Positions 5,488 to 46,273 of a stretch of 47,781 bases of DNA are shown here, piece by piece. The notes under the pieces were generated by a model. It saw nothing but the letters and a program-made list of their open reading frames with translations. It was not told the DNA's origin and did not search any database. Made by a program: the position numbers and the translations under genes. Source of the stretch: Reclinomonas americana ATCC 50394 (taxonomy: Eukaryota); the NCBI GenBank assembly GCA_048213135.1, contig PS015038.1, forward strand, positions 201,735-249,515, read 5' to 3'. Every line of letters starts with the position of its first letter. The first letter of the stretch is position 1.

Positions 5488-8400
5488 TCATTCATCGTCG
5501 GCATCCATGGCCGTGGCCTGCTGGTGCACGCCACTGCCACTACCGCCGCCGTCCTCGTCCTCCTCGCCCTCGCCGTCGTGGAGACCGAGTGTGTGCGGGT
5601 CCACCAAGTAGGGCGTCTCGTCGAGGCGCTTCATGCTGGCAATCGAGTCGTCGACCCACGCGCGGTACACGAACTTGGGTCGAGAGCGCACGCACAACTG
5701 GCGCAGCGATGGCAGGCGCCACGTGTCGAGCGAATCGCACACAACGTGCGTGATGATGGTGCTCGGGTTCGTCTCGATGGTGGCACCGTGCGCCGACAGC
5801 GCAATTGCCGTCTCGTTCAGCCAGCTGTCCTCGATGCGAGTCGACGGGTCACTGCAGGAGAAACCGGTGAGTCCGGAACGCACGCAGTGCAAGAGAGGCA
5901 CGAGCGGATAACGCAACCCGAGTTCGACAAAGGCGTCGACGTAGAAGATGAGGGGCGAGAAGATGCTGGTCTCGGGCATGCAACCGGTCTCCTCGTACTG
6001 CTCCATCTGCCACCAGTCGCGGCCGGCCGGCTGGCGATGCAAGCAAGATTCAAAACAAAGGACATGGTGTATGAAGGCACAAAAGCACGCACGCAACATC
6101 GTCGGGCGGTCGCGGATAGTCGACCATGCGGGCAAACACGGCACGCAGTTCATCCGTACTGACTGGCTCCATGTACGAGTCGCCGTACTTGTCGGAGAGC
6201 ACCTTGAAGGCCTCGCTGGTCTTCGGCGACGTGTAGATCATCCACCTGCAAGCAACGGTTAAGTGTGAAGAAGAAGACAGTCGCCCCTTCCCTTCACGAC
6301 TCAACTTTTCCGAGAGTGGCACCCGCTGGCGTCGATTGAGGCACTCGGCGAACCAGTCCAGCTTGACAATGTCGACAGGGCGAAAGACGCCGGTCTCGAA
6401 GCCACGAATCACGTCCTTGACTCGCACGTCTGTTGAAGGGAAGGGAGGTGAATAAACAAGAGAGACAGGAGGGACAAGAAACCATCGCAACTGTTGGAGC
6501 TGGCGAGCATAATGTTGGTGGTCGGCGTGCACTCCTGCGTCTTGCGGCCACCGTACTTGACGATCAGTTCCTCCACTCGTGCCTTGCCCGTGCGTCCATC
6601 GGTCGACTCCAGCGGGCCCTTTGTGTAGTTGATCTTGGAGTCGACATAGAGAACGACTGGAGGGACACAGCAGTGTGTGTGAGATCCAGCGTTTCATCCC
6701 ACTCTTCCCCTTCCAACGCACCAAACTCGTCGCCACGGAAGACGTTGCCCTGCACCTCCACACGCGACGTGTCCGTGTCGCGAAACTGCGGTGCAATCAT
6801 CAACGCCTGACGAGTACGCGGCGCCACGTTCCGACGCTTGCTGGCCGTCTCGTCGGGCAGGTACTCGCCCGTCCTCTTGGCGTTCGTGCCGAGCAGGCCG
6901 TTCTGCGACTCGGAATCGTGCACGAGCACCATGTACTCTGCGTGTTGAAAGCGATGAGCAGTTGCGGTGATGGTACCAAAAACACACGCACACTCTCACG
7001 CACCGTCCAGCGTCAGCGAGTCACGCCAGTCCTTGTCGTGACGCACTCGCATCATGCGCGGAAAGCGCAAGGTGTAGCCAGTGCGGAACTTGTCGGTGGT
7101 GATAATGGAGTAGCCGCGTACTTGCAGCACGATGGATCTGTGCATGCAGGCAACCAAAAGAGTGAGCACAAGGACTCTCCTCCCTGTGTGCCTACCACAC
7201 GACGAAACTTGTCGGCTGGGATCCACACCGACGGCACATCGTTGGCGGCCGGCCGCCAGCCTGCAGTAAGATGATAGAGGTGTAAGAGAAAGAGGTAAGA
7301 GTGGACGCAGGGGGTNNNNNNNNNNNNNNNNNNNNNNNNNNNNNNNNNNNNNNNNNNNNNNNNNNNNNNNNNNNNNNNNNNNNNNNNNNNNNNNNNNNNN
7401 NNNNNNNNNNNNNNNNNNNNNNNNNNNNNNNNNNNNNNNNNNNNNNNNNNNNNNNNNNNNNNNNNNNNNNNNNNNNNNNNNNNNNNNNNNNNNNNNNNNN
7501 NNNNNNNNNNNNNNNNNNNNNNNNNNNNNNNNNNNNNNNNNNNNNNNNNNNNNNNNNNNNNNNNNNNNNNNNNNNNNNNNNNNNNNNNNNNGCTATGAGA
7601 ACGGTGATACTCACAGAGAGGAGCGCAACCACACGCAACAGCAGAAATTCTCGTCCTCCAACACCTCGTCTCCGTCGGCCAGCAATCCTGTGCATCGACA
7701 GGCGAGAGTGTGTGAGCATGGCGGAGCTGTCACTCACCAGAGGCGTGCACACTTACCGTGCGATCGGTTGGCACCAAACTTCTTGAAGGTGCCCGCCTGC
7801 TTGCTGTACACCATCATCTCGCCGTCGAGGATGCAGCTGTTCTGGCCCATTCAGTGTGCAGCTCGCTGCTGTTGTCTATTTGCACAGGCGATGATCTCAC
7901 CTCTGCACCTTGTCGCTGAGACGCGACTTGAGCACGTCCACGTAGCGAGAGTAGAATCGGTCGTAGGCGTGCCCGTTCCTGCACCAGCACAGATGAGTGA
8001 CACGAAGAGAAGACAACGGATGCCAACAAGTACACACACCTGGAGAAGAAGCGGATCTTGTGGCCCTCGATGTGCACCTGGATGCGCTCGCCGTCGTACT
8101 TGAGCTCCCACGAGAGCTCCTCCGGACGCGAGCCCTGCAGCGCGCCACAAACATGGGCGGATGCATCGTCACCGTCTTCTCGGGGACGAGCGAGACGCAA
8201 CTTTATCCGTGCCACGCAGCAAATCGTCAATGTGTCGCACGTCGCGCAGTGGTGCCGCCAGCATGGGTCGCACGCAGGCGAACAGGCGAATGGGCTGTGT
8301 AGGGTGTGAGATGGTGCGACCACAATCCAAAGAACCACCGCCCGCCACGCTCACCGTCTGATCCAAATGGAACGCCCGATCGCGACACTTGACAGCCACC

Positions 8401-9377
8401 TCTTGCAAATCGGAACACGCACTGTGCAGCTTCTCGGCATCGGTGTGGTACGCCTTGAGCATGGTGGCGTGGTTGACGCCCATCTTCATTTCTGCGAGAC
8501 GAGAGTGAGTAACAGGGGAGTGGGAAGCGAACGCGATCGGCTGCGTAACCCTTCAAGATGATGCGCATGAGCCAGCGTTGCTCCAACGGCGTCGTCTTCT
8601 GCAACAGCGTGAAGAGGTGTTCACGCTTCTTGGCCGGCTCCGGCGCACTGGCCAGCTCGTCCAGCATGTGGTTCACATCGGCCACCGTCAGCGTCGATTG
8701 CTGCGTCGACAGTGTCGACATGACTTTGTACACCACGTCGGAAAAGTAGGCCGTCTGTGATGGCAGCACAGTGAGCACTCCCATCCCTCCCTTTCACCCA
8801 AAGAGCATCACGAAACATTGGAGCGGAAGCCGCCTCCAGTGCCATCCTTCCAGTACATCAGGCTGCGCGCCTTCTCGCTCGTCTTCGGCAGCTGGTACAA
8901 GTCGATGATCATGTGCGCGATCTTCTTGTCCTTCAGGCCGTACGTTCCACGCAGAGCCTCATCCAGCTGCATGCAGTGTTGGTGAGTGAGGGAGGGGANN
9001 NNNNNNNNNNNNNNNNNNGGCTGCAGACCACAGGCAACAAACCTCGGGCATGAAGAGTCGCAGGAAGGGATGGGTGGATCCGTCGCGCACCGAGTCGATG
9101 AACTTGGTGAACACCTCCAGCTTCTTCTTGCTGCCCTTGGTGGCGAGGATCTTCTCGAACACACTGCAACCGGAGATACAATGTGGGCACTTTGGTCGCG
9201 CCACTTGAAGTCACACTTTTACGACACCAATTGAACCCCACCACCACCACCACCACGCAACTTGCAGAGACTCACAAAGAGCACAGTCTTGTCGCGCTCA
9301 CGCAGACCGGGCGGGTCTTGCGCACGAGTGTGCCCACGCGATGAGGACCCGGAGGCAGCAGAGGCCGCTGCCGACAT
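5488..9377 (-). CDS. LIG4: DNA ligase IV (ATP-dependent, NHEJ) with two C-terminal BRCT domains; middle part lost in N-gap 7316-7591
   Basis: Spliced product has an N-terminal DNA-binding domain (RGTYGLKD; EQRWLMRIILKEMKMG), motif I ELKYDGERIQVH, FFSRNG, CILDGEMMV, OB-fold DVWIPADKSIVLQV and GYTLRFPRMMRVRHDKDW, then BRCT1 (VFRGDEFVVLYV..LIVKYGG..DIVKLDWFAECL) and BRCT2 (LSAHGA..ITHVVC..VYRAWVDDSI). About 16 visible introns. Confidence 0.95.
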
Positions 9378-9472
9378 GGTCTCCTCTCGCTCAATGCACA
9401 CGAACGAAAACTTGACTAATGTAAAGAGGGACAACTCGATGTCGACGTGCCCTTCTTTTTTTCCGCTTTCAT

Positions 9473-10405: not shown

Positions 10406-11812
10406 TCACGACCACGGTGTTGCCGGGCATCCTTGCGTGCAGCTGCCAACAAACATGAGCTCTCCTCCATTGCAGCAAGAGTAAAATAGTGATTACGCAA
10501 CTTGAATCCGTTGCAACCGTCAATCCACGACAGCGGCTCGTGCACCTCTGACGAGTCCTGCGCTTGCCAGAAGCGCTCGAGAGCGTCGGAGAGCGTGACA
10601 CCACCGACGTGCATGCGCGTGAAATCGTCACTGGTTGCCGCGCAGTGCGAGAAGCAGGCGCCGGCCCAGACCCCATGTGGCGGGCTGTCCCGCGCGGTGA
10701 ACACGGTCAGCAGGGCGAAAAAGCCCGGTCGGAAGGTGTTCAGCGCATAGGTCTTCTCCTCGGTGGTCCACGCGCTCGGAGCGCCCCACTGGCCCAAGTC
10801 GGTGGACAGCTGCCATGCGTCATACTGCTCCGTGTGCACCAGCGTCGGCGTCTTGACAAACGGCATGGCCACGCTGCTGAACAGACACATCCACGGCTTG
10901 GCGGCATTGGCCGCCACACACGCCTTGTTCAGCACCGGCTGCCACAACTCGTAGCCGGCACGCGCAATGGCCTCCAGCGAAGGCACACGGTCGGGATGCA
11001 GCGTAGGCAGGTTGGTGAGCCAGCCGGCGTCGGCAAAACCCGCGTGCAGCGGCACCACCGACGCCGCCACATCCACCGTGTTGACCACGCCCTGCCCACC
11101 GGCCGAGCACCCGGCATACAGCACGCGACTGACGCCCGGACGCAGGCCATGCACCTGCACGAGATCCTCCATGGCCGCACGCACATGCGCCAGCCCGCGG
11201 AACACAAAACCAGCGGCGTCGGGCTGCGTTCGATTGCCGGCAAACATGTCGCTGGAGCAGTACCTGCAAACGAGGCATGAGCGCGTGCATGTAAAAAGGG
11301 ACGTGAGTGAGCGACAGACACGCAACTGCACAAAGGCCAAGTGCGCGTCGGCAAAGAGCGCGTTCTTGGCGGCGCTCGGCGACAGCAGGCCGCCATCAAA
11401 CGCCACCTGCTGCTTCCACGGGTGACTGCTCATCAACTCGGGATTCGACTTGTACCGCTGGCGACACGACTGCTCGTCTTGGCACCACGCACCACCCTGC
11501 AAGCAAGAGAGTGAGAGTGAGAAGAGTGAATGACAGCGTGTTTGTGTGCGCGCAAACCTGCAGGAAGACGACCCATGTGTCGGAGGTACCCGGGCGATAG
11601 TAGTAGCCACCGGGTGTCTGATCGTTGCACACAGCACCTGTGTGTGTGTGAGGGAGGAGAGTGAGGCAGTGGGTCGCGGAGCAATCACACTGGTGGAGAA
11701 AGAGATGAGGACCTCGCGACTGCGCGTCGGTGTACAAGTGCAGCGTGGCCATGGGCGCAGCACATGCGCACACTGCCAAAGCAAGCAACAGCAACAACAA
11801 CGCGCTGCGCAT
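10406..11812 (-). CDS. Secreted pectin acetylesterase / Notum-family alpha/beta hydrolase, 5 exons
   Basis: Signal peptide MRSALLLLLLALAVCACA. Family motifs GAVCNDQTPGGYY, WVVFLQGGAWC, YCSSDMFAG, nucleophile elbow GCSAGG, YDAWQL, ACFSHC, and C-terminal IDGCNGFNCTQGC after splicing the intron starting at 10501. Confidence 0.9.
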
Positions 11813-11894: not shown

Positions 11895-13902
11895 ATGACG
11901 ACCACGATCGTGAGCAGTGTGGAGTTTGTGCGCGAGGTGACACAACGCGCGCATGAGCTCATTCGCGACACCGCGTGCAACGATCGCGACACACTGTACG
12001 AGCTCACACGGATGCTGGAGTTGGACTCGCGAGGAGTCGACGCGCCTGATCCACTCGCCGGCGACGATGCTGTGTGCCTGGAGGTCTCCTGCTCACTCTT
12101 ACTTGTTCTTTGTCTCTCACACACGCTGACAGTTGTCTTCCGTTGGTGACGTCGCGTAGTTGTTGCGAAAGCTGGTGATTCTGTTGGATACGATGGATCA
12201 CCGCGCGCTGCCCATGATGAGCAGCAGCATGTCGAAGCGACAGCGCAAGAAGAAGAAGATGAAGGCGAGCAGTGAGGAGACAGGTGCGTCGTCGTCGTCG
12301 GTGACGGTAACGGTGACGACACTGGAAGCGTTTGGAAGGATCTGTGTGCACGCACTGCTGGCTCGCCTGTTCTCGCGGGTCGGTGACTTGTACACGGGCG
12401 AGGCGCGGGAGCTGTGGGAGCACGCGATCAAGGGCTGCCTGACGTTGGTGGAGAGCGAGGTTTGTCGGGTTGACAACTGTTTGGTTTCGTTGGGCTCATC
12501 ATCGCCTTGGGCCAGCCGAGCGATCGTGATCGGGAGGTGGAGTGTGCCAAGCTGTATGCCGTGCAATCGCTGGCGCAGTTTGTGCACTTTCACGGCCACG
12601 CCTTGTCGGGCCGTGAGCATGCGTGGGTCGGCAGCAGTCGGGCGGCCATTGAGCGGCAAGTGCTGCGGCGCGATGTGCGGCAGCAACGCCTGAACTCGGT
12701 GTGTGAGCAGATCTCGTCGCTCCTGTTCCACAGTGAGCACTCCTCGGCCTACACGCTGTATTCGATCTTGGCGTGGACGGTCGGCTTGGCGGCGCCGGTG
12801 CTGGCCCTCTGGCAGCGCAATTACGAGTGGCTCGGCTTGTCTGTGGCGTTGCGTCGTCTTTGTTTGCTGTGCTTCACGCGTGCGCGTAGCTACGTTGCTC
12901 ACCTGCGCGCAGCATGGATGCACTGCTGGTGGCCGGCACCATGTCGGAACAGGCCACTCGCCAGCGCACACTGCAGTTCCTGCTGGAGCCCAGCACGTTC
13001 ATTGTGCACGATGTCGACATGCTCTCCCGCATGTACGCCCAAGGTGTGTGTGTGAGAGAGAGAGAAAGAGAGAGAGGGAGAGAAAAGGTGATATATCTGC
13101 GATTGGCATTGTGGGGTTGGTGTATTGATGTACATGGTATCACACTGCTCACTCTATCGGTGCGCTTATCTCCACTCACACGCGCAGTGCATGAGGAGGA
13201 ATATGACAGGAGCGACGCGACAGGCTCCACAGTTGCGTGGCTGGGCGGGGAGGGGAAGAGAGGCGAGGGGTTGGACATGTTCGTTCGCGCGCCACCGCAG
13301 GCTCTCTCCGTCGGCGCGCGCCACACTCACTTTCGTGCACCTGTTCTATCGTGCTTCTGCTTCCACGTTGAACAGTCCACCATGAGCGTGTGGTGGCTAT
13401 GGAGGGTGTGGACATTTGTTCTCGCTCACCCTCCGCACGCACACACACGCACATCCATTTTCCACAGGTGCCACCACCGGCAAACAGCAGATCATCTGCA
13501 GCGGCACCACCGCCGGACGCACCTAGCGATGACAGGAGCGTGATGACGACAGAGGTGCGTGAGAGTGTGTGTCTACTGTAGATTTGCGCGACCTGCGTGC
13601 GCGCTCACGAGGCCTGCAGGTCGCACACGGCGCCGGTGGAATTGTGCGTGCACGCTCCTCCTCGACGCCGCCCACCGGTGCGAGCGAGTACGCTCGAGGT
13701 GCGCATGTCGCGTCTCCCGTCGCCAGACCTTCTCCCTCTCCCATCTGACACCCAACTGACACCCAACTCAGGCACCGGCTCACAGCCGCCGTCGACGCAG
13801 CCGTTCAAGGAGGTGGCGCCGACGCGGCGAGGTGCGCGCACTGGCAGTGGCGGCAACGGTGGAAAGAACCGGCGGCCGGGACGCCCGGATCACGGACGTT
13901 GA
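11895..13902 (+). CDS. Hypothetical multi-exon protein (helical N-terminal region, basic NLS-like KRQRKKKK, disordered C-terminus)
   Basis: GT-AG introns join the frames consistently (VCLE|LLRKLV, VESE|PSDRDRE, LSVA|MDALL, YAQ|VHEEE, MTTE|..GTGSQPP..DHGR*). Exon structure in 13230-13470 is uncertain. No family recognised. Confidence 0.6.
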
Positions 13903-17461: not shown

Positions 17462-18838
17462 TCACGAGAACGTGTGCTTCTCATCCACCAACGACGCGAA
17501 GTCCACGTCCTCAATCACGTCCACCTCGTACTGCCTCAGTGCGCGCGCCAACAGCACAGCCAGTAGGTGCTTGCCTGCGCGTTTATGTGGGCGGGGGGAG
17601 CACGCGCGTTAGCAGCAATGAGGCGCACACCATGGCCCACCGCCATTCCCAAGCCCTCACATGACTGCCCCTACCGCCCCCTCAGACAAACACATGCACA
17701 CACACACACGCATATGCATGCGTGCTCACACGCACAAAGGAAAAAAGTACGAACAGCAGAAAAACAAACGAGACACGATTTCGGGGAAACTGTGGCGCAT
17801 GGCTGACTCCGCGCACTGTCGTCCCCCCCAAAACAGCACAAATGCACACGCACCACACAAGGGCAGGGTACATGCAGAGGGAGAGAAAGAGAGAGAGGCA
17901 AAGACAGAGGCGAAAGACCAGCGAGTGAATCTTCCACGCGTCAAAAAAGGTATGCTGACTCTCGCCAATAATGGGGAGGTACGGTTGTCATGACGGCAAC
18001 ACCACCGGCGATCGCGCTCTCTCCCCCCATATGCACCCGCGAGACCCGCACGAGCAAAAAGAAGAAAGAGATCTCCGAACTGCTGAAATACAGGAGTTTC
18101 GCGAGGACGACTGCAGAGCAATGCACACAGCGGCACTCCCTTTGTGGCGGCAAAGAGAGAGATGCCGTCGAGGGAACAGAGAAAAAGACAAACGACGGGG
18201 CGCGGGGAAAAGCCGCAGACAATGTCGGCGCACACACACAAAACAAACAAGCACACACACAAAAAATGTTCGAGAGAAACAGGAACAGAACGGACAGCGA
18301 TTAGTGTGTTCAGAGAGGCCAGCGAGAGACTGAGAAGGAGAAGAAGGAGAAGAAAGATGAATTGAAGAGTGGGAGTTGAAGAACAGAAGAAGAACACGCA
18401 TTCCATCTCTCACAATCTCTCTCTCTCTCTCTCTGTCATTCACGCAACATGTGATTGCCTCGCGCTTGTGCACGACGGCGCTGGCAAAGTGATAGCAACT
18501 GCAGTAGCCCGAGAGGAGGCAATAGTACTGCGAGCGCGACTGTCCGTGCACCACAAACAGCGTGCGAGTGGCCTCTCCGCGACACCTCAACATGCGCACC
18601 GCCGACTGGTCAATCAGCTCCACGGCGGAGGAGAGCACGCCCGGGAAGAGGGCGTGGAGACTGAGAGAGAGGGAGAGTGAGAGAGGGNNNNNNNNNNNNN
18701 NNNNNNNNNNNNNNAGAAGGAGAGAATGGGGAAGGAGTGATACCTCAACAACAGTTCATCGGTGAGTCTGCCCTCGCGCTCAATCTCTTTCAGCAGCGCC
18801 TCGGCTTGCAGTTGCACAGGCACAACTACTTGTGTCAT
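17462..18838 (-). CDS. ZSWIM7: SWIM zinc-finger protein ZSWIM7/SWS1 (Shu complex, homologous recombination), 3 exons
   Basis: Spliced: MTQVVVPVQL..LTDELLLSLHALFPGVLSSAVELID..RTLFVVHG..YYCLLSGYCSCYHFASAVVHKREAITCKHLLAVLLA. The CxC..CxH SWIM motif is completed only by the T|gttgcg (18448)..gcag|GC AAG CAC (17575) intron. Confidence 0.9.
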
Positions 18839-19307: not shown

Positions 19308-21375
19308 TCAAATGCGTACCGGCTCACTCGACGACGGCGACGCCTGGCTCATCTCCGTGTCGGTGTTTCCCAGCGACTGCAGAAAGCACCTCTTGAGTGA
19401 GAGAGCGAGAGGGCCACATCCTACAAGAAATGCTGCGAGACGGACCTTGTACTTGTTGAGCTCGCGCTTCCGCATGCACACGCACAAAATAGCGGTGGCG
19501 ATGACAGCGGTCAAGCCGAGACCGAGACCCAAACCGAGTGCCAGTGCCAGCCGATTGGACGCTGCATGATGCCATGGAGCGTGAGACCACTCATAAGGAG
19601 AGGAGCAAGTGCATGCAGCAAGCGCAACCTTCTTGGCACGCGGCGCCCAAGTAACCGGAATCTGCGACACACGAGAGGCAATGAGCGCGCGCACCGCGCC
19701 GCGCAGCACGTCTCACACCACTTACCGCACTCGCACGTGCCGAGGTTGCAGCGGCCGTGGCCGTTGCAGAGATTGGCACAGTTCGGGTAGCAAGTGTCGG
19801 AGATCTGGAAGAGCGTGTCGGGCTGCGGACCGGGCACAAAGTTGGAGAACGAGAACACAATGTCGATCGGTGTGGTGCCGCCGCCAACCGGCTCGTAGCG
19901 TGTGCCGATAATGTGTGCTCTGCGCGCGCAGCGGTGAGTCGCCATGGAGCAGACACAGAGAGGAGGAGGATGCAGGTGCCGCAACTCTACGGGCACACGC
20001 GCGCCGGGCAATCCAACAAACACCCAGGTGGGGAGCGCATACGAGTACGAGATGGTGCCGGCCTCCCTGCACGGCGCATGCATGAGGGGCTGCGAATCAG
20101 GTATCTATGCAGCAAATAGGCACACACGCACCTCATGCCGTCGACTGTGCGTTCAAACTTGCCAACCCAAATGTCGCACGGAATGCCGCGTGCTGTCAAC
20201 AGCGCACACAGATGTCATTGAGATATCACAAAAGCAGCGGCGTACGAGGTCACACACACACAGACCCTCGCCCTGTGAGGTCCACACTTCGTCGGAGCTG
20301 GGGTAGCCAAGAATGTCGCCCGCTGTGAGGCAGAAGAGACGTGTCAATCGACAGCACAGAGACGCAAGAGGGAAGTGCTCTCGAGACATTGACGGATAGT
20401 GCTCTGCGTTCTCGTGTTCGTGCGGTCTCTTGCGGACTCTTGCTCTCCTCACCACTTAGTCTTCTCCCTTTCTTCGCGTAACCCGCGACACTTTCCACCG
20501 GCTACATCGCCTCTCCTCGCAATCGCTCACATGCCTGTTGTCTTCTTCGTCTCACATTTCGGTAAGCTACACCAAGGTGACTTGTCTCTCCTTGAGCCTC
20601 TTTCACACACTATCCTGCTCACTCCCTCTCGTCTCTCGGGCTTGCTTGCATAACTTGCTTTCTTTTCTACTCAATCTTCTACATCGCACATCCTCACACG
20701 ACCTCGCTTCCAATGCCTTGCCTGCATCGCATCTCGTAACTTGACTTTCCTCTCGTCTAGCCATGATACACTGAACCTCTTTCACGCACTATCCTACTCA
20801 CTCCCTCTCGTCTCCCGGGCTTGCTTGCATAACTTGCTTTCTTTTACTACTCAATCTTCTTTCCCTCCGGCCATGATACATTGAACCTCGCAAACTCTGA
20901 CTTGTCTACCTCTCCCATTCAACGCACACCCTTGCTCTCCTCGTGCCTTGTCTTCTTTCCCCTCCCCTTCCCTCCTTCCCTTTCCACGCAACGAGAGACC
21001 GTGTTAAACATGGCATGCACTGGATCGAATCCAAACGGCGGCGCCGTCACCGGCGTGCACTGATCCCGCCCTCGCCGATCCCACACATACCCTGAATGTG
21101 CCGTGTAATTGTACACTCCCACAAAGTTCTGAGTCGCCGAGCGGCGCTGGTAAAACACGCGCATGTAGATCAAGTCCAACGTCTCATCCAGGTCAGTCCT
21201 GCACACAATGCATGCATGCATGCGAGGGTGAGGCTCATGCATGTTCTCTCTCTCTCTNNNNNNNNNNNNNNNNNNNNTACCGTACCGTACGTAACCGTAA
21301 CGTACGTACGTACGTACGTACGTACGTACGTACGTACGGTACGGTACGGTACGGGTACGGTACGGTACGTACGTC

Positions 21376-33700: not shown

Positions 33701-36700
33701 GGGAAGCATCACCGGCGCAGTGACCGTCGCTTTTTGTACGGAGGAGGGTGAGTGAATTTCTCAGTGCATGCCACATAGCAGCATTGTGTGTCGCGCAAAC
33801 CTGCCAGTCCAAAAGAGAGGACGGACGACGACGCGGCCGAGTGAACCAGGCGCAGTGTGTAGGCAGTCGCCAGGTTGTAATTCGGAGGACCGCTGACCGG
33901 CACCGTAAACACAAACGTCTCCGTGGCGCCACCGGTACACACGGCGGTGACAGCCTGCGTCGTGACTGTGGTCACTGGCGCGGCCGTCTCCACCGTCAAC
34001 GTCAACGGTGACACAGGCGCTGGCACGAGGCACGTGAAGCGCACAGTGTACGAGTAGCCCGGATAGAGCGTTGGCGGGAGGTCAGCCGCAGTCACGGATA
34101 CAGCAGGTGCTGATTGTCGACAATAAACGGTGAGTGTTGTGGAGCAAAAAAATACACTCACAGACAACAACCAGCGCAAACCTTGCACAGTGAACGCTGT
34201 AGAACAGGCGTTGATCGACACATTGTCGCTGTCACGCACACACAGCTGCACGCTGGTGGAACTGGTCCACGCCGAGAGCAGTGTGACGGACTGCGTGCCC
34301 GCAGACACAGCCGGCACGCCAGAGGCCAACACGCTCAGCGCAGCATCGTTGCGCACGACGTACACATCCACAGCTGTGATTACCGAGGCCAGATTTGCAG
34401 TCCATGTGACCGTGGCGGCCGTGCCGGTCAGCGGTGGTGTCGGGCCGGCGACGAAACTCGCCACCACGTTGCTGATGCCCGGGGCTGCGTGATGTCGATG
34501 AACAAGAAGAAAAATACAAGTCATGTGAGCAACAGAGTTCAGTGGCCGTCACGAAAAAGTCGGTACGCACTGGTGACGGAGAACCACGAGCTGTTTCCCG
34601 TGGCGGATCGGGTGCTGGCATTCTCGACAAAGAGTCGGTAGGTGCCAGTCGACGGCACCAGCATGTTCACGGTGAGCTGGTTGAAGAAGCCACCGACAGC
34701 GCATTGCACGGCTTGCGTACTGGCCACCGTCAACACCTCGGACAGTGACGAGCCTTGCTGCAGCACATTGACCTGCGCCACGTGAAAGTGAGAGTGAGCA
34801 TGTACGAGGCGGCACAGCAGTCATTGGCCATGGAGCGAACCTGCGTAATCGTCGGGTTGTTGCACACAAACGAGATGCGAGTCGGCAATGAATACTGAGC
34901 CAGTGAGACGGCATCCGTCCAAGAACCCGCTCCAATCTGGTACTGCAAGCCGGCGGTCTCTCCACAGCTGTTGAGACAAAACACACGCGAAGATGAGTGC
35001 GAGTCGTACAATAGCGGAGCAGAGAACGGCGTCGAACCAGTCATCAAAGGAGAACAGGATGGCCCTGCAGAACATGTCGAGAATGAGCAACAAGCGAGTG
35101 CCGCAACACAACGAATATTGCTATTAACAAAACACACCGATGACTTCCAGCAGCGAGAGCGATACTACCCGAGAGGGCGTTCGCCCAATTGCCGCTCCAG
35201 TCTGCGGCAGCTGTACCAGTGGCCACCACCGTCGTGTCCACTTGGATCTGAAGATACGTGTGCCGGGTGTAAGTCAAGGGCACGCACCACAATAAACTCA
35301 CCGCGTGTCACGCAACTCGTGAGCCCCATCCGTTCCCGGAGCCCCAGCGGAACGTGTACGTCGCGGCAGTGGGCACCACGAAATCAATCGTCACTCTGTA
35401 CGCCAGCGCGTTTCCTGGCGATGCGCCGCACAGGGTGGCGGCAGGCATGCTCGTGAGTTGCGTGATCGTCGACATTGTCGCCGTGCACGATTTCACCTGC
35501 AGACGACACCCTCACTGTCAGCATATGATGCTGGCGTGGAAAAAATGCACCACCAATGAGACACATACACACACACACACACACACCGAATCAAAGTACG
35601 TGTTGAGGTTGGCCAGTGAGTCGGTGATCAGCGGCTGCATCGTGCCGTTGCCCGCCTCCACCGTGATGCCGGTGAGCGAGAGGCGGCCGGTCTGCAGCAC
35701 AGTGGTCGACGCCAGTTGCATGTCTGCGCGTGAGCATGAAGACACAATGAGCGAGGAGCACAAATGGGCTCGGAGGCGCCGGCACGCACCTGACACGTCG
35801 AACGCGGTGCCAGTGGTGGTTGCCGTCGAGTTGTCGAGGACCAGCTTCAGTCGGTAGGTTGCACCCGTGTGCACGGAAACATCGGTACCGACGAGCCAGG
35901 CGAGCGTGTTTGTTGTGACACCGTCGCAGACCGAAGGCGCGCCGCTGCGAATGACCAGCGACCAGCCCGCCGTGGCGTCGTCAATGATGGAAATGGACAC
36001 GGGAGCGGTGGCAGTCGGTTGGGCGACACACGTCCACGTCAGTGTGTACGACTCGAGACGGAAGATGACCGAAGGCAGCGCAGCGGAGGTCAGAGTGACG
36101 GATTCTGTGCACCAAAAGCAACAGGGTCAGTGCACAAAAACGCAAAGTGGTTTCCAGCTTGATGATGCCTACCAATCGACAATGACACGAGCGACGAGAA
36201 CGGGTCCGTGGCGGTGAGGCGGAAACACAACTGATACTGGCCGGTGCTGAGAGCGCCCACCGTCGCCGCCAGTGTCACCGACAGCTGTGAGAGGTCGGCG
36301 GAGAGTGAAGATGCTGTCACAGCCACTCCCATGCCGGTGTTGCAGCTGGCGGCCAAAAACATGTCGGCAGTCGCCGGCGCAGTGGTGAAGCCACCAACCG
36401 GGATCGTCATGGACACGTTCACAGTGCCAACGGGCACTGATGCTGGCACCGGTGGTCCAGATGCGCCGACTGCACGCGCGCAGCGATGGTGAGAACACGC
36501 CTCTCGATTTTTCTTGCGTCACAGCATGCAACACGTACCGACAGAAATCGTTGCCTCGGGGAACACCGTGCCACCGGTCGCCCACTGCGCACACACCGTA
36601 AACGAGCCGGGACCACTGAGCATCGTGTTGTACGCCACGTCGACTGTGTCGGCAGTGGCGTTGTCCGCAGTCGAGAGGGGCGCCATGACACTGCCGGCGC

Positions 36701-39700
36701 ACGTGGGTGACGACGACAGCGAGTAGATTGCCGCGCCGCCCAGCAGCGTCCGCGAGCCAGTGGGCGCCAGCGACAACGACAGCGTTTGCGATGCCGACGT
36801 GACCGACACTTGCGGTGACACGGTGGTGATCGAAGCTGTCGAGAGGCGAGGATGCGGGAATGAGTTCTCTAATGAAGGGAAGGAGAAGGCGACGATGTAC
36901 ATGCCTGCCAGGATCGACACGGATGGCACAAGGGCCGCAACCTGTCCACTCGTCCAACGGGCGCACAACTGCAAGCAACGGTAATCAAAGTAAGCAACTA
37001 CGAAGGGAGCGAGACAGAGAGCGAGGGCCAAACACGCAACGCTGTAGATGGCTGGCAACAGTGCGGAAGCCGGGGTCGGATTGATGGCCAGACGCATCTC
37101 TGTCGACGAGATCCACGTGGGTGCCACTTGGACATTGGCAGTCGCCGAGGCACAGGAGCCAGTGGAGGAGATGAAGAAGGTTGCGCCAGAGGAGGGGAAT
37201 GAACGACCGGCCATGGTGACCACTTGACCAGCAGTGCCGGCGTTGATTGTAGCCGGCGACAAGGAGGTGACGGTGGCGAGGAGCGTAATGTAGCGCACAC
37301 GGGGACCGTCGCCCACCAGCACATTGTTGCCGAACAAGTCGACTGCAGACGGCGACGTGAAAGTTGCCACGGCTAGCGCCTCGCCATTGGAGGCACCCGC
37401 AACTCCAGTGCCAGCAAAGTCACTCACGTAGCCTGTGTACGAACACAAAAAAAGCCGAGGTGAGTGAATCGGAGAACGGGCATGCGCGCAGAACTGGACA
37501 CTCCCGCCGCTCACCGTCTGCGGCCACGCGTCGTACGCGACGGAGCGCCTGCTGAGAGACCACGGCAAACGAGTCGGTATCGACAGCAATGCCCCACGGT
37601 GCGGAGGCCAGAGTGGCAATGGTGGCCACCGCCCCCGTGGAGATGGTCACTTGCAGAATGCGCGAGTTGCCGCTGTCGGCCACGTACACGTACAAGCCAT
37701 TGCTGCTGACAGAGAGCGAGAGAGGGGTGGTGAACTCGCCGCCGGAGCCGGCCAACACGCCCTGGCTCACACCACCCGAGTCCACTTGCGTAAGCGTGGT
37801 GCCCGTCGACACAACATACGTGGTCGACGTGAGCGCCACATCACTCAGTGCATTCGGGTTGGCCGTGTACAGAACCGTTTTCACGCCTGTTTCGCGATGA
37901 ACATGAGATACCACTACGACAACAGTAGCTCAGTGCGAACTCACCAGTGGACGGCACGACGCGGACGAGTTGATTGGCGCCGCGGTCGGCCACCAGCAGC
38001 GTTCCGTCACTCAGCACCGCGATTCCGTACGGATTGGTGAGAGCCGGTGCCACGTTGATTGTGCTCACTTGCATGTCGTCTGCACAAGGAATTGCAATGA
38101 GTGTTACATGACAGTTCCAGTCGCGCCACGTGATGGAGCACTGTTACGCACTGCTGCCAGGCACAAACGCGATGCGGCGAATGGTGTTGTTGCTTCCACC
38201 GTCGCTGACGTACGCCGTAAAGTTGGCAGCGGTGCTATCAATGGCAACACCCTGCACCGTGTCGAAGCGCGACGACAAGGCCGACCCGTCCAGCAAGCCA
38301 ACCGTGCCGGTGCCGGCAATGGTCAGCACAGTGAACTCGACTACAATCACTCTCTCGAGTCAGCTACCGCGAAGAAAATCGGTGGAGAGCTTCGACGCAG
38401 GTGCCACTCACCAAAGCTCACAGTGCCCGTCCGTGATGGCGTGGTCTGACTGGTGTTCCACAGCACGCACAGGCCAAATGGAGCCAGCGCAACTCCAGTG
38501 CCGTCCACGGTCAGCGACACGCTCGACGATGTGGCGCTCGCTGCTGTGGCAACGGTGGTGAGGGTGCCCGTCGACGAGCACCCGCTGGTTCCGGTGGCGA
38601 GAAACACGGAGGTGGGCGACCCCAGACCAGCGCCGTCCAGGAATACACGCTGCTGCGTGCGGTACAACTGCGACGGCCGAATGGTGCTGACCGAGGCCAA
38701 ATTGATGGAGACTCCCACAATGGCGTACGAGGCCGTCGGATCGGGGCGCATGAGAACGGTGTAGATTCCGGCCTGCACCGTGGCGGTGTTCCACGTGAGA
38801 GTGAAGGGCAGCGGGTCGGTCGAGGTGGCCGACGTTCGCGTCGTCGCCGTCATGATAGCATCGGTGGCAATCACGGGGAACGCCGTGGAGCACGCAGATA
38901 CACACAAGATGACACCGGTGGTGGTGTCGGAGGCGGCCAGCGTCGGCAAGTTGACGCCGCGGAGTTCGACCGCAAATGTGCCCTGCTCCCAGGGCAGCAC
39001 GGCCGGGAACACGGAGGTGACCGAGGCCACACTCACCGGACCAAAGTCGGTGTAGGCCGACGTTGTGGACCAGCGCACGCAAACGCGGTACGTGACGGCC
39101 GTGTTGAGACTGGCAAACAAACAGTGAGCACGCCAGTCCGACGAGCGAGTGAAGGAATCGACACACACACACACACACAACGCAACGTCGAGCCGTCAAC
39201 GACAAATGTCGCACTGATCGGTGACGCGATAGTGATGGAGGTGACAGCGGCGGAGGAGGCCAGTGTGCTGCAATTGGCCGCCATCACAATGGCCGATGCA
39301 TCGCCGGTTACATCGGTGAATCCCGCACCGTCGAGCGACTGTTGCGATAAAGTGAGTGAGTGCGAGTGGAACGCGAGATCACTACGCAGCAGCAAAACAA
39401 AGGACGCACAATTTTCTGACTGGCGAGTTGGAAAATGATGCTCGGCACAATGCGCGTCACCGTCGGCACAGTAGTGATGCGTCGAATCAAATGCGACGAA
39501 AAGTCGGCAACAAACAGGTCACCGCTGGTGTTATCAAAGGCGATGCCGTTGGGCAGCGAAAAACGAGCCTGCGGCGGGGGATGCGGTGAGCATCGCAAGG
39601 AAAGTGAAAAAGACTTGACACACAAAGACGCAACCGGAGAGCGAGCGGCGCCATTCGTGTTGCCAGTGGATCCGGTTCCGGCCCAGCGAACTGCAACAAG

Positions 39701-40897
39701 AAGGAGAGAGAGGAAAAGGCATGTGAGTGTGAACGTGTGTACATCCACGCAACAAGAGGAGCATGTACAACCGCACCGACAAAGCCTGCGTGATGTAAAC
39801 AACAATATCAGTACGGGTATGAAGAGTGCAATGAAGACACACCGACGACACACATACCATCAACGGTCGATGCACGTCGCACCACAGGTGTTGTGGTGTC
39901 ACTGTAGTGGGAAGAGGACGTGTCAGGGGCAAATACAGTGCGTGACATTACAAAGGGCGCAACGTGAAGAAGATGCTGGTCGACGAGTCCGCAAACACCA
40001 CCGAATTAGGCGCATTCAGCGGCACATTTGCAATCGCTCCTTCCGACACCGTAGGTGCCTGCTCAAGCATGTCAGTGGGTGCGCACACACACAGCGGAGA
40101 GAGAGAGTGAATCGCATGTTCGTACCAAGGAGAATCCCACCAGCGTCGTCACAGCATACGCTGCACGGGAGTGTCAGCAGAGAACAACATGGATTGCGCA
40201 CGGGACGATTGGCGGACGAAACGTGCAGTCAACGATACTTGGCGAATGCGCCCGTTGCCTGTGTCGGCCACCAACACTGCAGTGCTCACTCCAGATCCGT
40301 TGCGCAGCAGCGAGAGCGAAGTCGGCGACGAGAATGACGCGGCAGTGCCGTTGCCGTTGGTCGACCCGGCCGAACCGGTGCCCGCCAGCGTGGCGACTGC
40401 AGTGACAGACGAGAATGGGTGTGAGTGACTAAACCAGGATGCTCACTCGGCGCACGTGACGCACCAGTGCTGCCAGTCAATGTCCGCACAGCATGATTGG
40501 CAGTGTCACAAATGTACAATGTTCCACCGGCATCAAAGGCGAGTCCGCCGACTGAACCAAATGTGGCCGACGCAGTCTGTTGCAAAGCGAGAGTGGGCAT
40601 GTTGCCAAACAACAACACTTTGACACACCACAACCAAAGAAACATATTTTGCGAACCGAGCCGTTGACAAAGCCAGCAGAAAGGCCGCCGGCCGCCGTGG
40701 CCACACCGGTTGCGGCGTTGACGGTGCGCAGACGGAAACCGTCGCCGACCCACAAGACTCCAGTTGTGGGATGACGCGCCAAGCCGCGTGGACTGACAAA
40801 GCGGGCCAGCAGTGGGTTGGCCGAGTCCAGATAGCCGGGAACGCCCGTGCTGCACCACACATGCACACCGTGAGCACACAAGTAGCGGCATCGAATA

Positions 40898-40928
<31 letters not shown>

Positions 40929-43900
40929 TGTACTCACCCAGCAACGGTCGACACGACACCGGCGGTGGTCACGCGGCGAATTGCACCATTACCAGTATCC
41001 TGAGCGAAAAAATGAGGGCGGTGAACCGAATCACGAGCTCTCTCTCCACAAAACCATGCACGAACCGCGACGAGCAGCGAGCCGTCCGCCTCCAGTGCCA
41101 CCTGCGTGGGATTAGTGAACTTGCCCGGACTGCCGTCCGCGAAGCCCGACGTGCTACCAGCGTAGGTCACCACCGACGGAACGACTGTCGGGCGCGAGGT
41201 GGGGAGAAAAGGAAGTGAGAACATTGAAAGGTGTCTGTGGAGTACACCAGCACCCACCAATGGTGACTTGTCCGACGGCCTGGTACGTGTCCGAGTCGTA
41301 GAATCGTGTGCACACAGTGTACGTGGTGCCGAGGGTCACCGACGATGCGTCAATCACCATGCGGACGCTGCTGTTGGAGTCCAACAGGTACTGTATCACC
41401 GTCAGGCCGGCCTGAGTGGCGGCCAGCGCACAAGTGGTGCCGCGCGACACGACCAGCTGCTGGCCAGTGAGCGCCGCCGACGACAGTTGAAGCAGACTGA
41501 GGCCGGCGAGAGTGAGCACTTGGAATGGAGCCGCACTGATGACGCTCGGCGCCACACTTTGCACCACCGGCACTGCAGGACACGAGGTCAGCGTCCACAC
41601 AACGTGACATGCACAGGAAAGCAGGGTGTACGAACCTGAGGCGCAGCAGAGCTTCGAGTTGGTGAAGAGCGGGATATTGCGGTACGTCGTCCCCGACTTG
41701 TCAAAGTCAATCACCGAGAACGTGGTCACGGTGACGTCGGCCGCTGCGAGAGAATGAAGGAGTGTGGCGTGAGTCACACTGGTACTTTTGCAGGCAGACG
41801 CCAAGGCCCACGCACCAACTACACCAGTCCACGAATACGCAAAGCAAATGTTGCTCGAGGCCAGTGTCATCGGACCAATGATGGCTCCATCAGTGCAAGC
41901 GCCACTCCAGTTGTACGATGTGGTCGCCGTGGCTGGCGACGTAGAGAACAATATGAGTGATTGTATGCCGTGAGGAAAAACCTGACTGGCTCATGACACG
42001 CACCTGAGCTCGTCGTGCCAGTGTACACTCCCGGCTCGCTGGTGTTGTCGTCGACCACAATATACGGTCCATTGCCACCATTGGCGGTGAGCGGAAACGA
42101 GCCGGTAGTCGAGGTGGCCGTTACCTTGACATTGTTAAAGTTGCCCTGCGCGCGAAAAATATGTGTGCGTGTGAGCGGGAGATGCTCGTGGAGAGTGGCA
42201 GTGATGGCAGCAGTGGAACACACCGTTGTCGGTCCCACTACCGCCGCATAGTTGTTGGCATTGTTGCTGGTGATGACGTAGTACGAAATGTACGAGTTGG
42301 AGCGCTCGTAGCCGGGATAGACGCCGCAACCCGTGTCATTCATGTGCTGAGTAGCAGTCCGTGTTGGCTCTCGCAGGGGTCGGATGGGCAGCGAACTGGC
42401 CAGGCCCGTGTACGACATGGTGCAGCAGTACATGACGGCGGGCGACAGGTTCGACATGTACACGCAACCGGCCGGCTCGTTGACTGTCCCGCTACCGTGT
42501 GAGACGAGGAGGAGGGAGACGAAGTAAGGCAAGCAGGCGCACCGTACGAGATCGAAAAGGGCGACGAGTACGTGAGACCGGTGGGATCGGTGACGGTGAT
42601 GGTCAGCGAGCGATTGCCGGTGGTCGCACTGCTGAGCAACACCAACTGCTTCGACGCATTGACGGAGAACAGAGCTGCGTCGGCGCCCGACAGACTGTAC
42701 GTGAAGACCGTGTCGTCAATGTTTGCATCGTAGGCCGACAGCTGGCCCACAATGAGGCTCGCCGACGAGTACGTCGACGAACTCAGGTAGATGGCCGACG
42801 GCGCCACATTCACTGCCGAGCGACGACAACAGAGATCAGTGGTCATATGAAAAGGGAAGACAGTCGCCATCATGCAGTCACTCACCGGCATTGATGGTAA
42901 ATGTGCGCTCGACGAATGCCCCATACGCATCTGTGGCACGGACAGTGACCGACTGATTGGTGCTGCGGTAGCCAGGGTTGATAATCGTCAGCGAGTCGGG
43001 CGACGTCCCCACCCCGAAATCGGCCGTGTTGGTGGTGACAGTCCACGTCAGCGTGTCGCCCGGATCGGTGGCCGTCAGCAACCCCACGACGACGTTGGCC
43101 GCCAAAGTCGGCGGTGTGTAGGTGGTGGCCGACAGCTGAATGTTGGTCGGCGCCGTATTCACTGATGCGGGCAAGAGGAGTGAGTGTGGAGCGAGCAGGG
43201 CCAGGCTCATTCTTGTCTCCACACACACACACATACCACCGGTGATGGTAAACGCTTGCTCAATGTAGTTGCCTGAGGTGTCGGTGGCACGCACAGTGAC
43301 AGTGAGCGACACCGCTGTGACGCCATTCTGCGACATCGAGAGCGTAGTGCCCGAGATGGAGAACGACGCAAAGTCGCCAGTGGACTGCAGAGTGAATGTG
43401 ACAGAGTCGCCAACGTCGGGGTCCACTGCCGACAGCGTGCCAATCACGATGGGCGCGCCGGACGAGGGCATCGGGTATGTGTTGGCGGAGAGTGCGATGG
43501 ATGTGGGTGGTGTGTTGCCTGCAAGAGGGGGGAAGGGGAGAAGGGGGGGAAGGGTGAGGGAAGGGTGAGGGAAGGGTGAGGGAGGGGAGAGGGGGAGAGG
43601 GAGGGGAGACGAGGAGAGGGGAGAGAAGGGGAGGAGAGGGCAGAGAGGAAAAAAGGGGAAGAGATCGAGTGGGAGGTGAAGAGAATGAGAGTGAGTGCGT
43701 GAGAGAGAGAGAGAAAGGCAGCGGCAAGGACGGAAGAAACACGAAAGCGTGGGAGAGGAGAGATGCAAATGGAGTGGGAGGTGAAGAAAGAGAGAAAATG
43801 GAGAGAGGAGATCGAAGAGAGCAGCATGTGTGTGCAAGAACGAGAGAGGGGTAACACGGAAGAAGGGACAGAGCACTAAAGAAGGAGAAGGTTCAGGTGC

Positions 43901-44034
43901 GATAGTGCACGACTGTTGATCCACTCCTACTCAGTGCGCCTTCCTCCGTCTCCACATGCATGGTAACCGTCTGCAACTTAATTCTTGACACTTGCACACA
44001 TTCTCTCTCCCTTACAGTGCACACTGCTTTCCCT

Positions 44035-44077
<43 letters not shown>

Positions 44078-44257
44078 CAGCGAGAGAGAGAGAGAGGAGG
44101 CGAGAGAAATCATGTGTGGGAAGTGGCGGGAGACGAGAGCGGAATATATTATTGCGCACCACACATACACACAGATAGAGAGAGAGAGAGAGAGCGCGCG
44201 CGCGAGAGAGAGAGAATGTGCTGGAAACAGGTGGAGGATGAGCGGGAAAGAAAAGCT

Positions 44258-44295
<38 letters not shown>

Positions 44296-46273
44296 AAGCA
44301 TTTACAGCGACGAGGGTGCACATTACACAGAATCAGTGCCCTTGATAGCAACCACCTCGAGATCGGCGCCCCCACATTCTCTCTGGCTTGTGGACGGGAA
44401 CAGAGAAAAACTCTCTCCCTCCTTCTCTCGATTTCCCCTCTCCACCCCCCACAACATCCCACACACAAACCTGTTGCACAACAGACAACACCGTTGGGGG
44501 TGTACGCTCCTGGCGCACCCGCTGCTGAGTTCACGGCGTAGTCAATACGACCCCAGCCAGTGCCGGCGCAGGAATTCACACTGGCTTGCATGGAGACACA
44601 GTCTTTTCCTACACCGCCAATGTCATTGGCACTGCCGCTGGAGAAGTTGAGGGTGACACATGTGTTGCTATCTTGTGCCGCTCGCATTGCAAAGCAGCCG
44701 GGGACCACAGTGGAGGCTGTGGCATATGGTACAGCGGCAATCACAGCAGTGTTGGCAGGCAGACAAACAGCGTATTTGATACTGTGGCGGCACAGTCGTT
44801 CAGCAACGAGGTTAACCAACGAACGGCGGCGTGCTTGTACGCAACTTGTTACAAAGGGCCTGCGCAGCTGCGTCGGTGATGGCTGCCCATGTTCCGCGGC
44901 ACAGAGCAACAGTGCCAGCCGCGTTGGCAAACGTGTAATCCGGCACGGCTTGTGAACCACAGGCTGCGTTGCCACCACATGTGTGCGTGTGAGAAAGGGA
45001 GCGAGTGGGGAATCACAGAAGCAAAGGGACACTCACCAGTGGTTGGTGCTGATCCGCGAGCATCGCACTGCAGGAGCGAGACGCATGTCAGAAGGACGAA
45101 GGAATGGGGCAGAAGGAGACACGGACGCACCCAGGTGTATGTCAGCTCCACATAATCGATCGCTGTGTCGTCGGCGATCAAGACGTCAACCTGTCGAAGC
45201 GGCAATCAGCAGGAGAAACAGGAAACAGTGCTGAGAAAAGGGAAAGGCACGACTCGAGACTGATGTATGACGCGGGAACAGAAAAAGGAAAGATGGGCGA
45301 CAAGAGTTAAGATAGAGAGAGGGAGAGAGGGAGAGATCTAGAGGGAGAGAGGAGAGAGGGAGAGAGGGAGAGAGGGAGAGANNNNNNNNNNNNNNNNNNN
45401 NGCAAGAATAGAGACCATTGGATTGTAGAGACACGGCAACACGAGTGAACGGGAAGAGCAGAGGTGGACGAAGAGAGTTGAGAGCAGGAATCGAGACCAT
45501 TGGATTGCAGAGACACGGAAACACGAGGGAACGAGACAGGCGAAATGAACTGAGACAAGGAGTAGCAAGACTCGAGACCTGATCGCGTGTACAAAAGAGA
45601 GGCGAACGTACGAGGGAACAGGAAAAGGAGAGACGCGGAGACTGCACGCAAGAAAGAGCAAGGCAGAGACACAGAGGGTCCCTCACAGCAGCGCACGCAA
45701 CTCGCAAGTTGGTGTTGATCAGCGCCACCAGACCAGCGACACTCGACAAATCCGCCACAAACAAGAAGCCCGACGGATACGTGGTCTTTGACCAGCCGGT
45801 CGCCTGCGCCGCGATACTCTGCTCAAAGTACGAAGTCCACGTGGTGCCCGACGAGTGAATGCCGGCGCGCACAGTGTCATTGTCGGGATTGTCGGTGCTG
45901 CCAAAGCCCTTGACCAGCGCACGCACAGTCGCCGCCACAATGCCACTCTGCAGACCGGTGAACGTCGTCACAAAGTTGGCGTTGGTCGTCGCCAGGTCGT
46001 CAAAGTTCTTGCGGGTGGAGTACCCGGCGATCAGTGCCGCGGAAGGTGAGGCCGCCTCTGTACAAGGGGAAGGAGAGTGAGTGAGGGAGGGAAGGGAGGG
46101 GTGAAGGAGGATAGGGGGAGAGTGGGTGAGTGAGGGAGAGGGTGAGTGAGTGAGTGAGTGAGTGAGTGAGTGTGTGTGTGAGTGAGAAAGTGAGTGAGTG
46201 AGTGAGTGAGTGAGTGAGTGAGTGAGTGAGTGAGTGAGTGAGTGAGTGAGTGAGTGAGTGAGTGAGTGAGTGA

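Follow-up and report, generated by a model that had tools for sequence, protein, structure and literature searches.

Human 5′ splice sites with an extra U after the GU and a G at +6 can be read by U1 small nuclear RNA (snRNA) in a shifted register (Roca and Krainer 2009, cited in PMC4856993), and others are read in registers with a bulge at +2/+3 (Roca et al. 2012, cited in PMC4856993); according to PMC4856993, the validated non-canonical registers together make up ∼1.5% of human 5′ splice sites. Two anti-correlated donor classes, AG//GUNNN and NN//GURAG, have been distinguished across eukaryotes (PMC11732430, PMC9803359), classes of 5′ splice site defined by LUC7 have been described (PMC11842720), and U12-type introns, at 0.36% in human (PMC4856993), have a donor consensus of their own. 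How the exact cut site is chosen under flexible U1 pairing is an open problem, and the human out-of-register donors are rare and have been studied one by one. Here, we analyze a 47,781-nucleotide stretch of the Reclinomonas americana ATCC 50394 genome (assembly GCA_048213135.1, contig PS015038.1, positions 201,735 to 249,515 of the forward strand; hereafter, the window) in which about a quarter of the donors are apparently out of register and follow a clean rule, namely, that an exon end without G means GTTGCGT.

The window has 59% G+C, is rich in short introns (median ∼68 nt), and contains nine N gaps; all counts given below refer to this 48-kb stretch, and all junctions were inferred from reading frames, homology, and paralogy. 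The intron table holds 126 entries: 52 introns checked by homology, paralogy, or motif in four genes (a saposin-repeat gene, a pectinacetylesterase-family [PAE] gene, a DNA ligase IV [LIG4] gene, and a ZSWIM7-like gene), 72 from a dynamic-programming (DP) gene model, one added by hand, and one donor for which the acceptor falls in a gap. The DP gene model was given GT..AG boundaries, intron length limits, and a self-trained coding potential, with acceptor and branch scoring added later. A donor is called shifted when it reads GTT-N-[C/A]-G (mostly GTTGCGT). Donors are named by the first intron base in window numbering, and a slash marks the exon-intron boundary.

Shifted donors account for 33 of the 126 introns (∼26%); G precedes 4 of them and A, C, or T the other 29, compared with 69 and 24, respectively, among the 93 unshifted donors (Fisher p = 6e-10). 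In the four checked genes, every one of the 32 unshifted donors follows G, and the exon ends in a base other than G at 18/20 shifted donors and in G at the other 2 (Fisher p = 4.5e-12). When DP introns longer than 130 nt are set aside, the association with the −1 base among the remaining 111 introns has p = 3e-10. The 24 unshifted donors after a base other than G comprise 11 with a clean GTGCGT, GTGAGT, or GTACGT and 13 with odd hexamers, which are probably DP errors. Intron phase also differs between the classes, phase 2 being the most common among shifted introns (18/33) and seldom seen among unshifted consensus donors (9/79). Since donor class and −1 base remain associated when introns of phase 0 (p = 6e-5) or phase 2 (p = 3e-4) are taken by themselves, and more weakly so in phase 1 (p = 0.11), phase was rejected as the driver, and the −1 base is the correlate.

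A preliminary description of this DNA, made from its letters and open reading frames, had proposed such a class, and all 16 donors that it named are found at their positions with the sequence it gave. Its suggestion that roughly a quarter of the introns are shifted agrees with the present fraction, and the association that it proposed between a non-G base at −1 and T at +3 with G at +6 is what the table displays. Its rough counts of ∼30 shifted donors, ∼4 of them after G, and ∼70 unshifted donors after G are close to those found here; the ∼8 unshifted donors after other bases were an underestimate of the 24 in the table, although 11 of these are clean. Shifted donors beyond its examples are those at 23925, 23567, 23002, 22259, 8816, 8549 (G/GTTACGC), 8201, 7208, 5917, 44845, 39963, 39634, 37040, and 35316.

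The two classes also emerge when the donor sequence or the exon is hidden from the analysis. On the gene-rich minus strand, the DP gene model run without donor information used GTTGCGT more often than any other donor heptamer (12 introns, with GTTGCGC in a further 3 and GTTTCGT in 2). It placed the donor exactly for 12/20 checked shifted and 18/32 checked unshifted introns, so that coding information by itself recovers one class as well as the other. A three-component mixture model that was shown just positions +3 to +8 of each intron, and so no exon bases, split the donors into 57% GT-G-[C/T/A]-G-T, 27% GT-T-G-C-G-T, and 17% noise.

Base by base, the unshifted consensus donors (n = 66) have G at −1 in 53 cases and at −2 in only 7, and on the intron side G at +3 in 46 (A in 7), a free +4 (C 28, T 18, A 16, G 4), G at +5 by definition, T at +6 in 51, and G at +7 in 33. 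The shifted donors (n = 28) have A (9), T (8), C (7), or G (4) at −1 and A at −2 in 16, followed by T at +3 in all 28, G at +4 in 24, C at +5 in 26 (A in the other 2), G at +6 in all 28, and T at +7 in 22. Loose donors such as GTACAC, GTACTT, GTACCT, and GTCCTC are found only after G. On the modeled junctions, the pair is one of a G/GTNNGT class that is loose on the intron side and an H/GTTGCGT class (H = A, C, or T) with a strict intron side. When one class is offset by a base against the other, the two share the word G-[G/T]-T-G-C-G-T-(G): the final G is frequent at +7 in unshifted donors and at +8 in shifted ones, and the base just upstream of the aligned word is seldom G in either class (−2 of unshifted donors, 7/66; −1 of shifted donors, 4/28).

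The distribution of GTTGCGT points the same way. It occurs 32 times on the two strands together, compared with 12.3 ± 3.3 in dinucleotide-preserving shuffles (0/100 shuffles reach 32), and within gene spans 27 copies are sense and 2 antisense (binomial p = 1.6e-6). Among the 27 sense copies are 22 donors in the table, 2 probable donors (7639 and 44845), 2 intronic copies, and 1 exonic copy preceded by G. GTGCGT after a base other than G is a donor in just 7/39 sense copies, with 17 exonic and unspliced, several of them inside homology-checked exons, and GGTGCGT is a donor in 14/20. After a base other than G, GTTGCGT is a far better donor than the perfect standard hexamer (22 vs. 7 donors). Given the reading frames and alignments on which the table is built, we regard the existence of a second donor class tied to the −1 base, with its cut position, frequency, and −1 dependence, as established in the window. 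An assembly error inserting a T was rejected by argument, as such errors should be independent of the −1 base and of the strand.

In all other respects that we compared, the shifted introns look like their neighbors. All 33 start with GT, unlike GC-AG introns, and CAG ends 28/28 of those up to 130 nt compared with 61/66 unshifted introns; median lengths are 67 and 69 nt, and base composition is alike. A CTNAY branch motif is present in 21/28 shifted and 64/78 other introns, its median distance from the 3′ end being 17 and 20.5 nt, respectively. U12-type introns are a precedent for a second donor consensus with its own snRNA in one genome; unlike them, the shifted introns match the other introns of the window in branch motif, acceptor, and length and make up a far higher share. 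Their donors and branch motifs lack a match to the U12-type consensus. This suggests that the shifted introns are ordinary U2-type GT-AG introns, with nothing in their sequence pointing to a separate spliceosome.

Compared with the human shifted-register sites, the window donors have the same extra U after the GU and the same conserved G at +6 rather than +5, and the human sites keep cleavage at the GU with pairing one base off, as we propose here. They differ in their frequency (33/126, against ∼1.5% for all non-canonical human registers together), in the strict heptamer with C at +5, in the near-complete tie to an exon end other than G, and in that textbook U1 is not predicted to favor the shifted register here. 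As in the two-class system, exon-side and intron-side strength are anti-correlated, and donors lacking G at −1 need a strong intron side; unlike NN//GURAG, the strong intron side is GUUGCGU, with an inserted base and with C where A is expected, and the division is close to absolute, where the two-class system is a matter of tendency. What is shared with known systems is compensation for a missing −1 G and out-of-register pairing; what is new is the ∼26% frequency, the inserted base, the strict heptamer, and the near all-or-none split. A full-text literature search, with subscription journals and supplementary files outside its scope, returned no report of a GTTGCGT donor class among the matches listed.

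The explanation that we lean toward, believing it a little more than we doubt it, is that a single recognition word, G-[G/T]-T-G-C-G-T, is read in two ways, presumably by U1 in a shifted register at the GTTGCGT sites. The site-recognizing RNA, presumably the U1 5′ end, would need the first G of the word. When the second letter is G, the only GT begins at that second letter, and the first G would stay behind as the last exon base; when the second letter is T, a GT begins at the first letter, the cut would move upstream by one base, leaving the last exon base free to vary. The cut itself would be set by the GU at the U6/Prp8 stage, with the pairing one base out of register, either shifted or, less likely, with +3 bulged. 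An obligatory first G would account for unshifted donors always following G in the checked genes, for the scarcity of G upstream of the word, and for the way in which GTGCGT after other bases is mostly ignored. The shared 7-mer, the scarcity of G upstream, and the mostly unspliced non-G GTGCGT copies likewise favor the idea, raised in the preliminary description, that the intron G at +1 takes the place of the missing exonic G at −1; the poor pairing with textbook U1 does not.

That poor pairing is the first of several points that weigh against the single-word explanation. In a nearest-neighbor folding of the donors against the textbook 11-nt U1 5′ end, a model that leaves pseudouridine and the small nuclear ribonucleoprotein proteins outside, unshifted donors after G reach a median of −7.4 kcal/mol with G+1 paired to C8 in 53/53, compared with a median of −1.6 kcal/mol for shifted donors after other bases, in which the expected G+1-C9 pair forms in 2/24. 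The pairing of shifted sites with this U1 end is poor whichever register is taken. Idealized sites give −2.0 kcal/mol for CAU/GUUGCGUG, −4.3 for CAU/GUGCGUGU, and −10.9 for CAG/GUGCGUGU. The C at +5 of shifted donors would mismatch U1 position 5, where the pairing A is present in only 2/28 and the corresponding +4 of unshifted donors is free, and the A at −2 in 16/28 fits exon pairing in the canonical register, as with a bulge, better than a pure shift. Finally, 72/126 introns come from the DP gene model, which had misplaced or missed 8/31 saposin introns before curation. In view of the folding energies, plain complementarity to standard U1 does not explain the preference for GTTGCGT; a displaced register is therefore kept as the best explanation at moderate confidence, and a variant guide RNA is a serious rival.

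Such a guide, either a dedicated U1 paralogue or an altered U1 5′ end reading 5′-ACGCAAC-3′, would pair with all seven bases of GUUGCGU, leaving the standard class to a U1 of the standard or ACGCACC type. The near fixation of every position of the heptamer fits this proposal, as does the finding that the heptamer alone predicts donor use (24/27 sense copies, vs. 4/17 when GTTGCG is followed by a base other than T); textbook U1 pairs poorly with the shifted sites, and the preference for G over A at +3 of unshifted donors (46 vs. 7 of 66) hints that position 6 of the reader may not be U or pseudouridine. Yet the U1 5′ end is very widely conserved, and in a GC-rich genome mutation pressure together with wobble pairing can be enough to favor G at +3 and C at +4. 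We consider a dedicated or altered guide doubtful, and the fuller proposal of two parallel 5′ splice site codes within one major spliceosome, with an ACGCAAC guide reading H/GUUGCGU by seven contiguous pairs, a shade more doubtful. If a second guide RNA does exist, exon ends would be freed from the need for G at −1, and most phase-2 introns would be accounted for. A scan of the window against Rfam gave 0 matches at the gathering threshold and, at E values up to 1, only weak microRNA-like and small-RNA matches, with no snRNA among them.

It is also possible, though in our view unlikely, that U1 pairs in its canonical register with the U at +3 bulged, or that the decision falls later, with U5/U6, the GTTGCGT donors being an intron-side-strong class that compensates for a weak exon end. 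GUU-type donors can equally well be drawn with one U bulged, the bulge +2/+3 registers are validated in human (PMC4856993), and the anti-correlated AG//GUNNN and NN//GURAG classes of other eukaryotes (PMC11732430, PMC9803359) are a parallel for the compensation. The A at −2 noted above suits this pairing, and unshifted donors after a base other than G are often a perfect GTGCGT or GTGAGT (10/24), as compensation predicts. A bulged site should, however, be the weaker one, and after a base other than G the excess of GTTGCGT over GTGCGT donors runs the other way, with non-G GTGCGT commonly left unspliced in exons; nor does a bulge give a reason for the scarcity of G at −1, and the intron-side consensus is not GURAG.

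Whichever RNA reads them, the GTTGCGT donors offer a natural system for separating the recognition of a site from the choice of the cut, for asking which base pair is obligatory, and for testing the co-evolution of snRNA sequence and donor consensus. On the practical side, many exon ends of this organism would be put in the wrong place by gene finders trained on standard donors, as happened in the first DP run.

A historical by-product, in which the GTTGCGT introns inherited their 5′ ends from a mobile intron family or arose by one-base intron sliding, is very improbable. The introns of saposin paralogues do lie 0, 1, 2, or 3 nt apart with the donor class tracking the last exon base, but the sharing of internal 8-mers per intron pair is no higher among shifted introns (0.15) than among unshifted (0.21) or mixed pairs (0.17), and BLAST revealed no intron family. 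Lacking extra internal similarity, and with it the extended similarity among members that marks introner-like families, the shifted introns are not a mobile family. In addition, the sense heptamer is almost never left unspliced, which points to a present-day function, and replacing the G at +1 with T would cause a frameshift.

Least credible is an annotation artifact, with the true donors being GC sites at +3 (GTT/GCGT) or other nearby GT sites, or with the introns simply read through as coding sequence: every GTTGCG donor does have an in-frame GC at +3 whose use would add one residue, and several shifted introns are stop-free multiples of three, but the alignments are gap-free under the GT reading, and read-through meets a stop at 15 of the 30 shifted donors examined. 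The GC(+3) donor was also tried junction by junction and rejected: it lowers the leave-one-out domain hidden Markov model (HMM) score at 9/9 saposin junctions (by 3.3–7.5 bits), creates a stop at 22103, and does not score higher in any of the PAE or LIG4 comparisons.

The saposin-repeat gene (21962–27694, minus strand) provides the largest set of checked junctions. Its curated model has 31 introns, 9 with shifted donors and 22 with unshifted donors that all follow G, and encodes 1096 amino acids without an internal stop, with 11 SapB domains; one exon matches Pfam SapB_1 and SapB_2. No junction introduces a gap into the alignment of the 11 domains, and at the positions of the nine shifted junctions the paralogues that lack an intron run straight through. 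In curating the model, we corrected eight DP errors, two of which were read-through of stop-free 72-nt introns, one of them with the shifted donor at 23925. For all nine shifted introns, the curated model, paralogy, and the HMM scores agree, and at least four were also found by donor-blind DP.

Of the eight introns other than that at 22103, six are in phase 2: CAT/GTTGCGTGT (25658–25726; also found by donor-blind DP), GAT/GTTGCGTAA (25265–25325; also by donor-blind DP), TCT/GTTGCGTTG (23499–23567), CAT/GTTGCGTCG (23366–23435; also by donor-blind DP), TGC/GTTGCGTCA (22932–23002), and GAT/GTTGCGTGG (22806–22868). The other two are the stop-free 72-nt intron GAC/GTTGCGTGC in phase 0 (23854–23925), for which the domain HMM gives 103.1 bits under the GT reading and 97.3 bits under the GC(+3) alternative, and AGA/GTTGCGCTT in phase 1 (22198–22259; also by donor-blind DP). 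The ninth, GTA/GTTGCGCCT (22032–22103, phase 2), bears on two earlier claims about the cut: cleavage there must precede the G, as had been argued, because keeping the G in the exon gives TAG; and the conserved isoleucine said to be restored by joining AT to T or C is indeed regained at 25325, 23435, and 22868.

Near the first Cys pair of the paralogous SapB domains (22329–27590), introns nearly coincide in position, with offsets of 0, 1, 2, or 3 nt. They lie after codon 3 in domains d04, d06, and d08, after codon 4 in d01, and inside codon 4 in d11 (phase 1) and in d09 and d10 (phase 2); the donor class tracks the last exon base, the phase-2 copies being the shifted ones. From the alignment, the offsets look like intron sliding among paralogues.

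The PAE gene (10413–11812, minus strand; Pfam PF03283, E = 9e-26) has 23 homologues, the best named ones being amoebozoan with 32–34% identity. Eight of them align gap-free across three donors. Two of these are shifted and in phase 2: GCA/GTTGCGTGT (11264–11326), for which the GC(+3) alternative scores lower, and CAA/GTTGCGTAA (10443–10501), where the spliced junction reads GFNCTQGCP compared with GFNCSSGCP in homologues. The third, CAG/GTTTGCGCG (11497–11557), follows G, has its TGCG displaced by two bases, and is gap-free across FLQ/GGAWC. The identical donor 9-mer CAG/GTTTGCGCG occurs at 11549–11557, with this PAE alignment behind it, and again after G at 33792–33800, both on the minus strand; these donors may be a two-base version of the shifted-donor effect.

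In the LIG4 gene (5491–9377, minus strand), 9/16 donors are shifted. A gap of 276 N (7316–7591), between the NTase motif III region and the OB fold, removes at least one exon. Named LIG4 and PAE homologues are at most 30–40% identical to the window proteins; a HMMER scan with LIG4 gave 4 matches, of which 2 were usable, a Chromera velia protein (P0027) and a 55%-identical metagenomic fragment (P0024), and in the N-terminal half of the protein these align across the donors at 9261, 8816, 8549, and 8201. The first, CAA/GTTGCGTGG (9164–9261, phase 2), is gap-free against P0027, with GC(+3) no better. AAT/GTTTCGTGA (8755–8816, phase 0) rests on the homologue alignment and has no in-frame alternative donor within 45 nt; AGG/GTTACGCAG (8492–8549, phase 1), one of the shifted donors after G, gives the junction RIILKEMKM compared with RIILKEMKL in P0024; and at AAA/GTTGCGTCT (8135–8201, phase 0), also placed by homologue alignment, GC(+3) is again no better.

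At GCT/GTTGCGTGT (7633–7639), read-through meets a stop, and the donor is probable; its acceptor and the next exon are lost in the 7316–7591 gap. Beyond the gap, CAA/GTTTCGTCG (7138–7208, phase 2) causes a frameshift if retained, and residues 1–44 of the exon that follows align end to end with human LIG4 555–598. The exon after AAA/GTTGAGTCG (6246–6305, phase 2) aligns from its first residue with human LIG4 742–781, although weakly (E = 0.16–0.8). PDB searches with three C-terminal LIG4 exons gave no match, and a search with one LIG4 exon against longer proteins found nothing; the last two shifted introns, GAT/GTTGCGTGC (6031–6097, phase 0), where read-through meets a stop, and CGG/GTTGCGTTA (5852–5917, phase 2, after G), are accordingly placed by reading frame and motif.

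In the ZSWIM7-like gene, the shifted intron CAT/GTTGCGTGA (17575–18448, minus strand) is 874 nt long; splicing from 18448 to 17575 gives AITCKHLLAV and completes the CxC...CxH SWIM pattern, regaining the SWIM cysteine. This intron is rich in CT and GT low-complexity runs and exceeds the median intron length more than 10-fold. At 18749, the GTTGAGG donor of the DP model is presumably false, GAG/GTATCAC at 18743 being the better fit as judged from the human protein. On the plus strand, DP and donor-blind DP agree on the phase-2 shifted intron GGC/GTTGCGTCG (12848–12912).

The minus strand of 27745–46754 holds one very large gene or gene pair with more than 4000 residues and ∼50 introns, followed by an 849-residue single-exon tail rich in Pro, Ser, and Ala; Pfam gave no match for two of its long exons. 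Its shifted donors begin with CGA/GTTGCGTGC (45695–45701), indicated by DP, the reading frame, and donor-blind DP, with an uncertain acceptor across a 511-nt span that includes an N gap. A probable intron missed by DP, CAA/GTTGCGTAC (44782–44845), probably joins two DP pieces of the gene. CAC/GTTTCGTCC (40161–40222) was found by DP and gives a frameshift and a stop if retained, and DP, the reading frame, and donor-blind DP concur on CAC/GTTGCGCCC (39902–39963), CCG/GTTGCGTCT (39569–39634, after G), and GAC/GTTGCGTTG (39110–39186). AGC/GTTGCGTGT (36969–37040) was identified by DP and the reading frame, and CGA/GTTGCGTGA (35248–35316) by DP, with a stop upon read-through and GC at +3 as the sole in-frame alternative. 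A 167-nt intron of the same region (39691–39857) contains an unused sense GTTGCGT at 39753, with a branch-like motif of its own and a shared acceptor, which may be a cryptic or alternative donor; a micro-exon inside this intron was considered and rejected because the 31-nt exon would break the reading frame.

Downstream of the saposin gene, again on the minus strand, DP places the shifted intron AAG/GTTGCGCTT (19562–19628, after G) and two low-confidence donors, GTC/GTTGCGTGA (21613–21619), with a 421-nt DP intron across an N gap, and CTC/GTTGCGTGG (20986–20992), with a 271-nt DP intron.

For the window as a whole, no near-identical counterpart of its exons was present in the protein collections searched, a search with a WD40 exon returned generic WD40 matches only, and metagenome scans for relatives of the window found none. 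A palindromic, GCAT-rich stretch adjoining an N gap (21278–21368) has weak microRNA-like Rfam matches on both strands, far under the gathering scores, and is probably a low-complexity repeat. Three GTTGCGT copies lie outside the modeled gene spans, at 1484–1490 (minus strand), 3894–3900 (plus strand), and 47568–47574 (minus strand), and may serve as donors in genes at the window edges or in a small plus-strand gene at 3748–4380.

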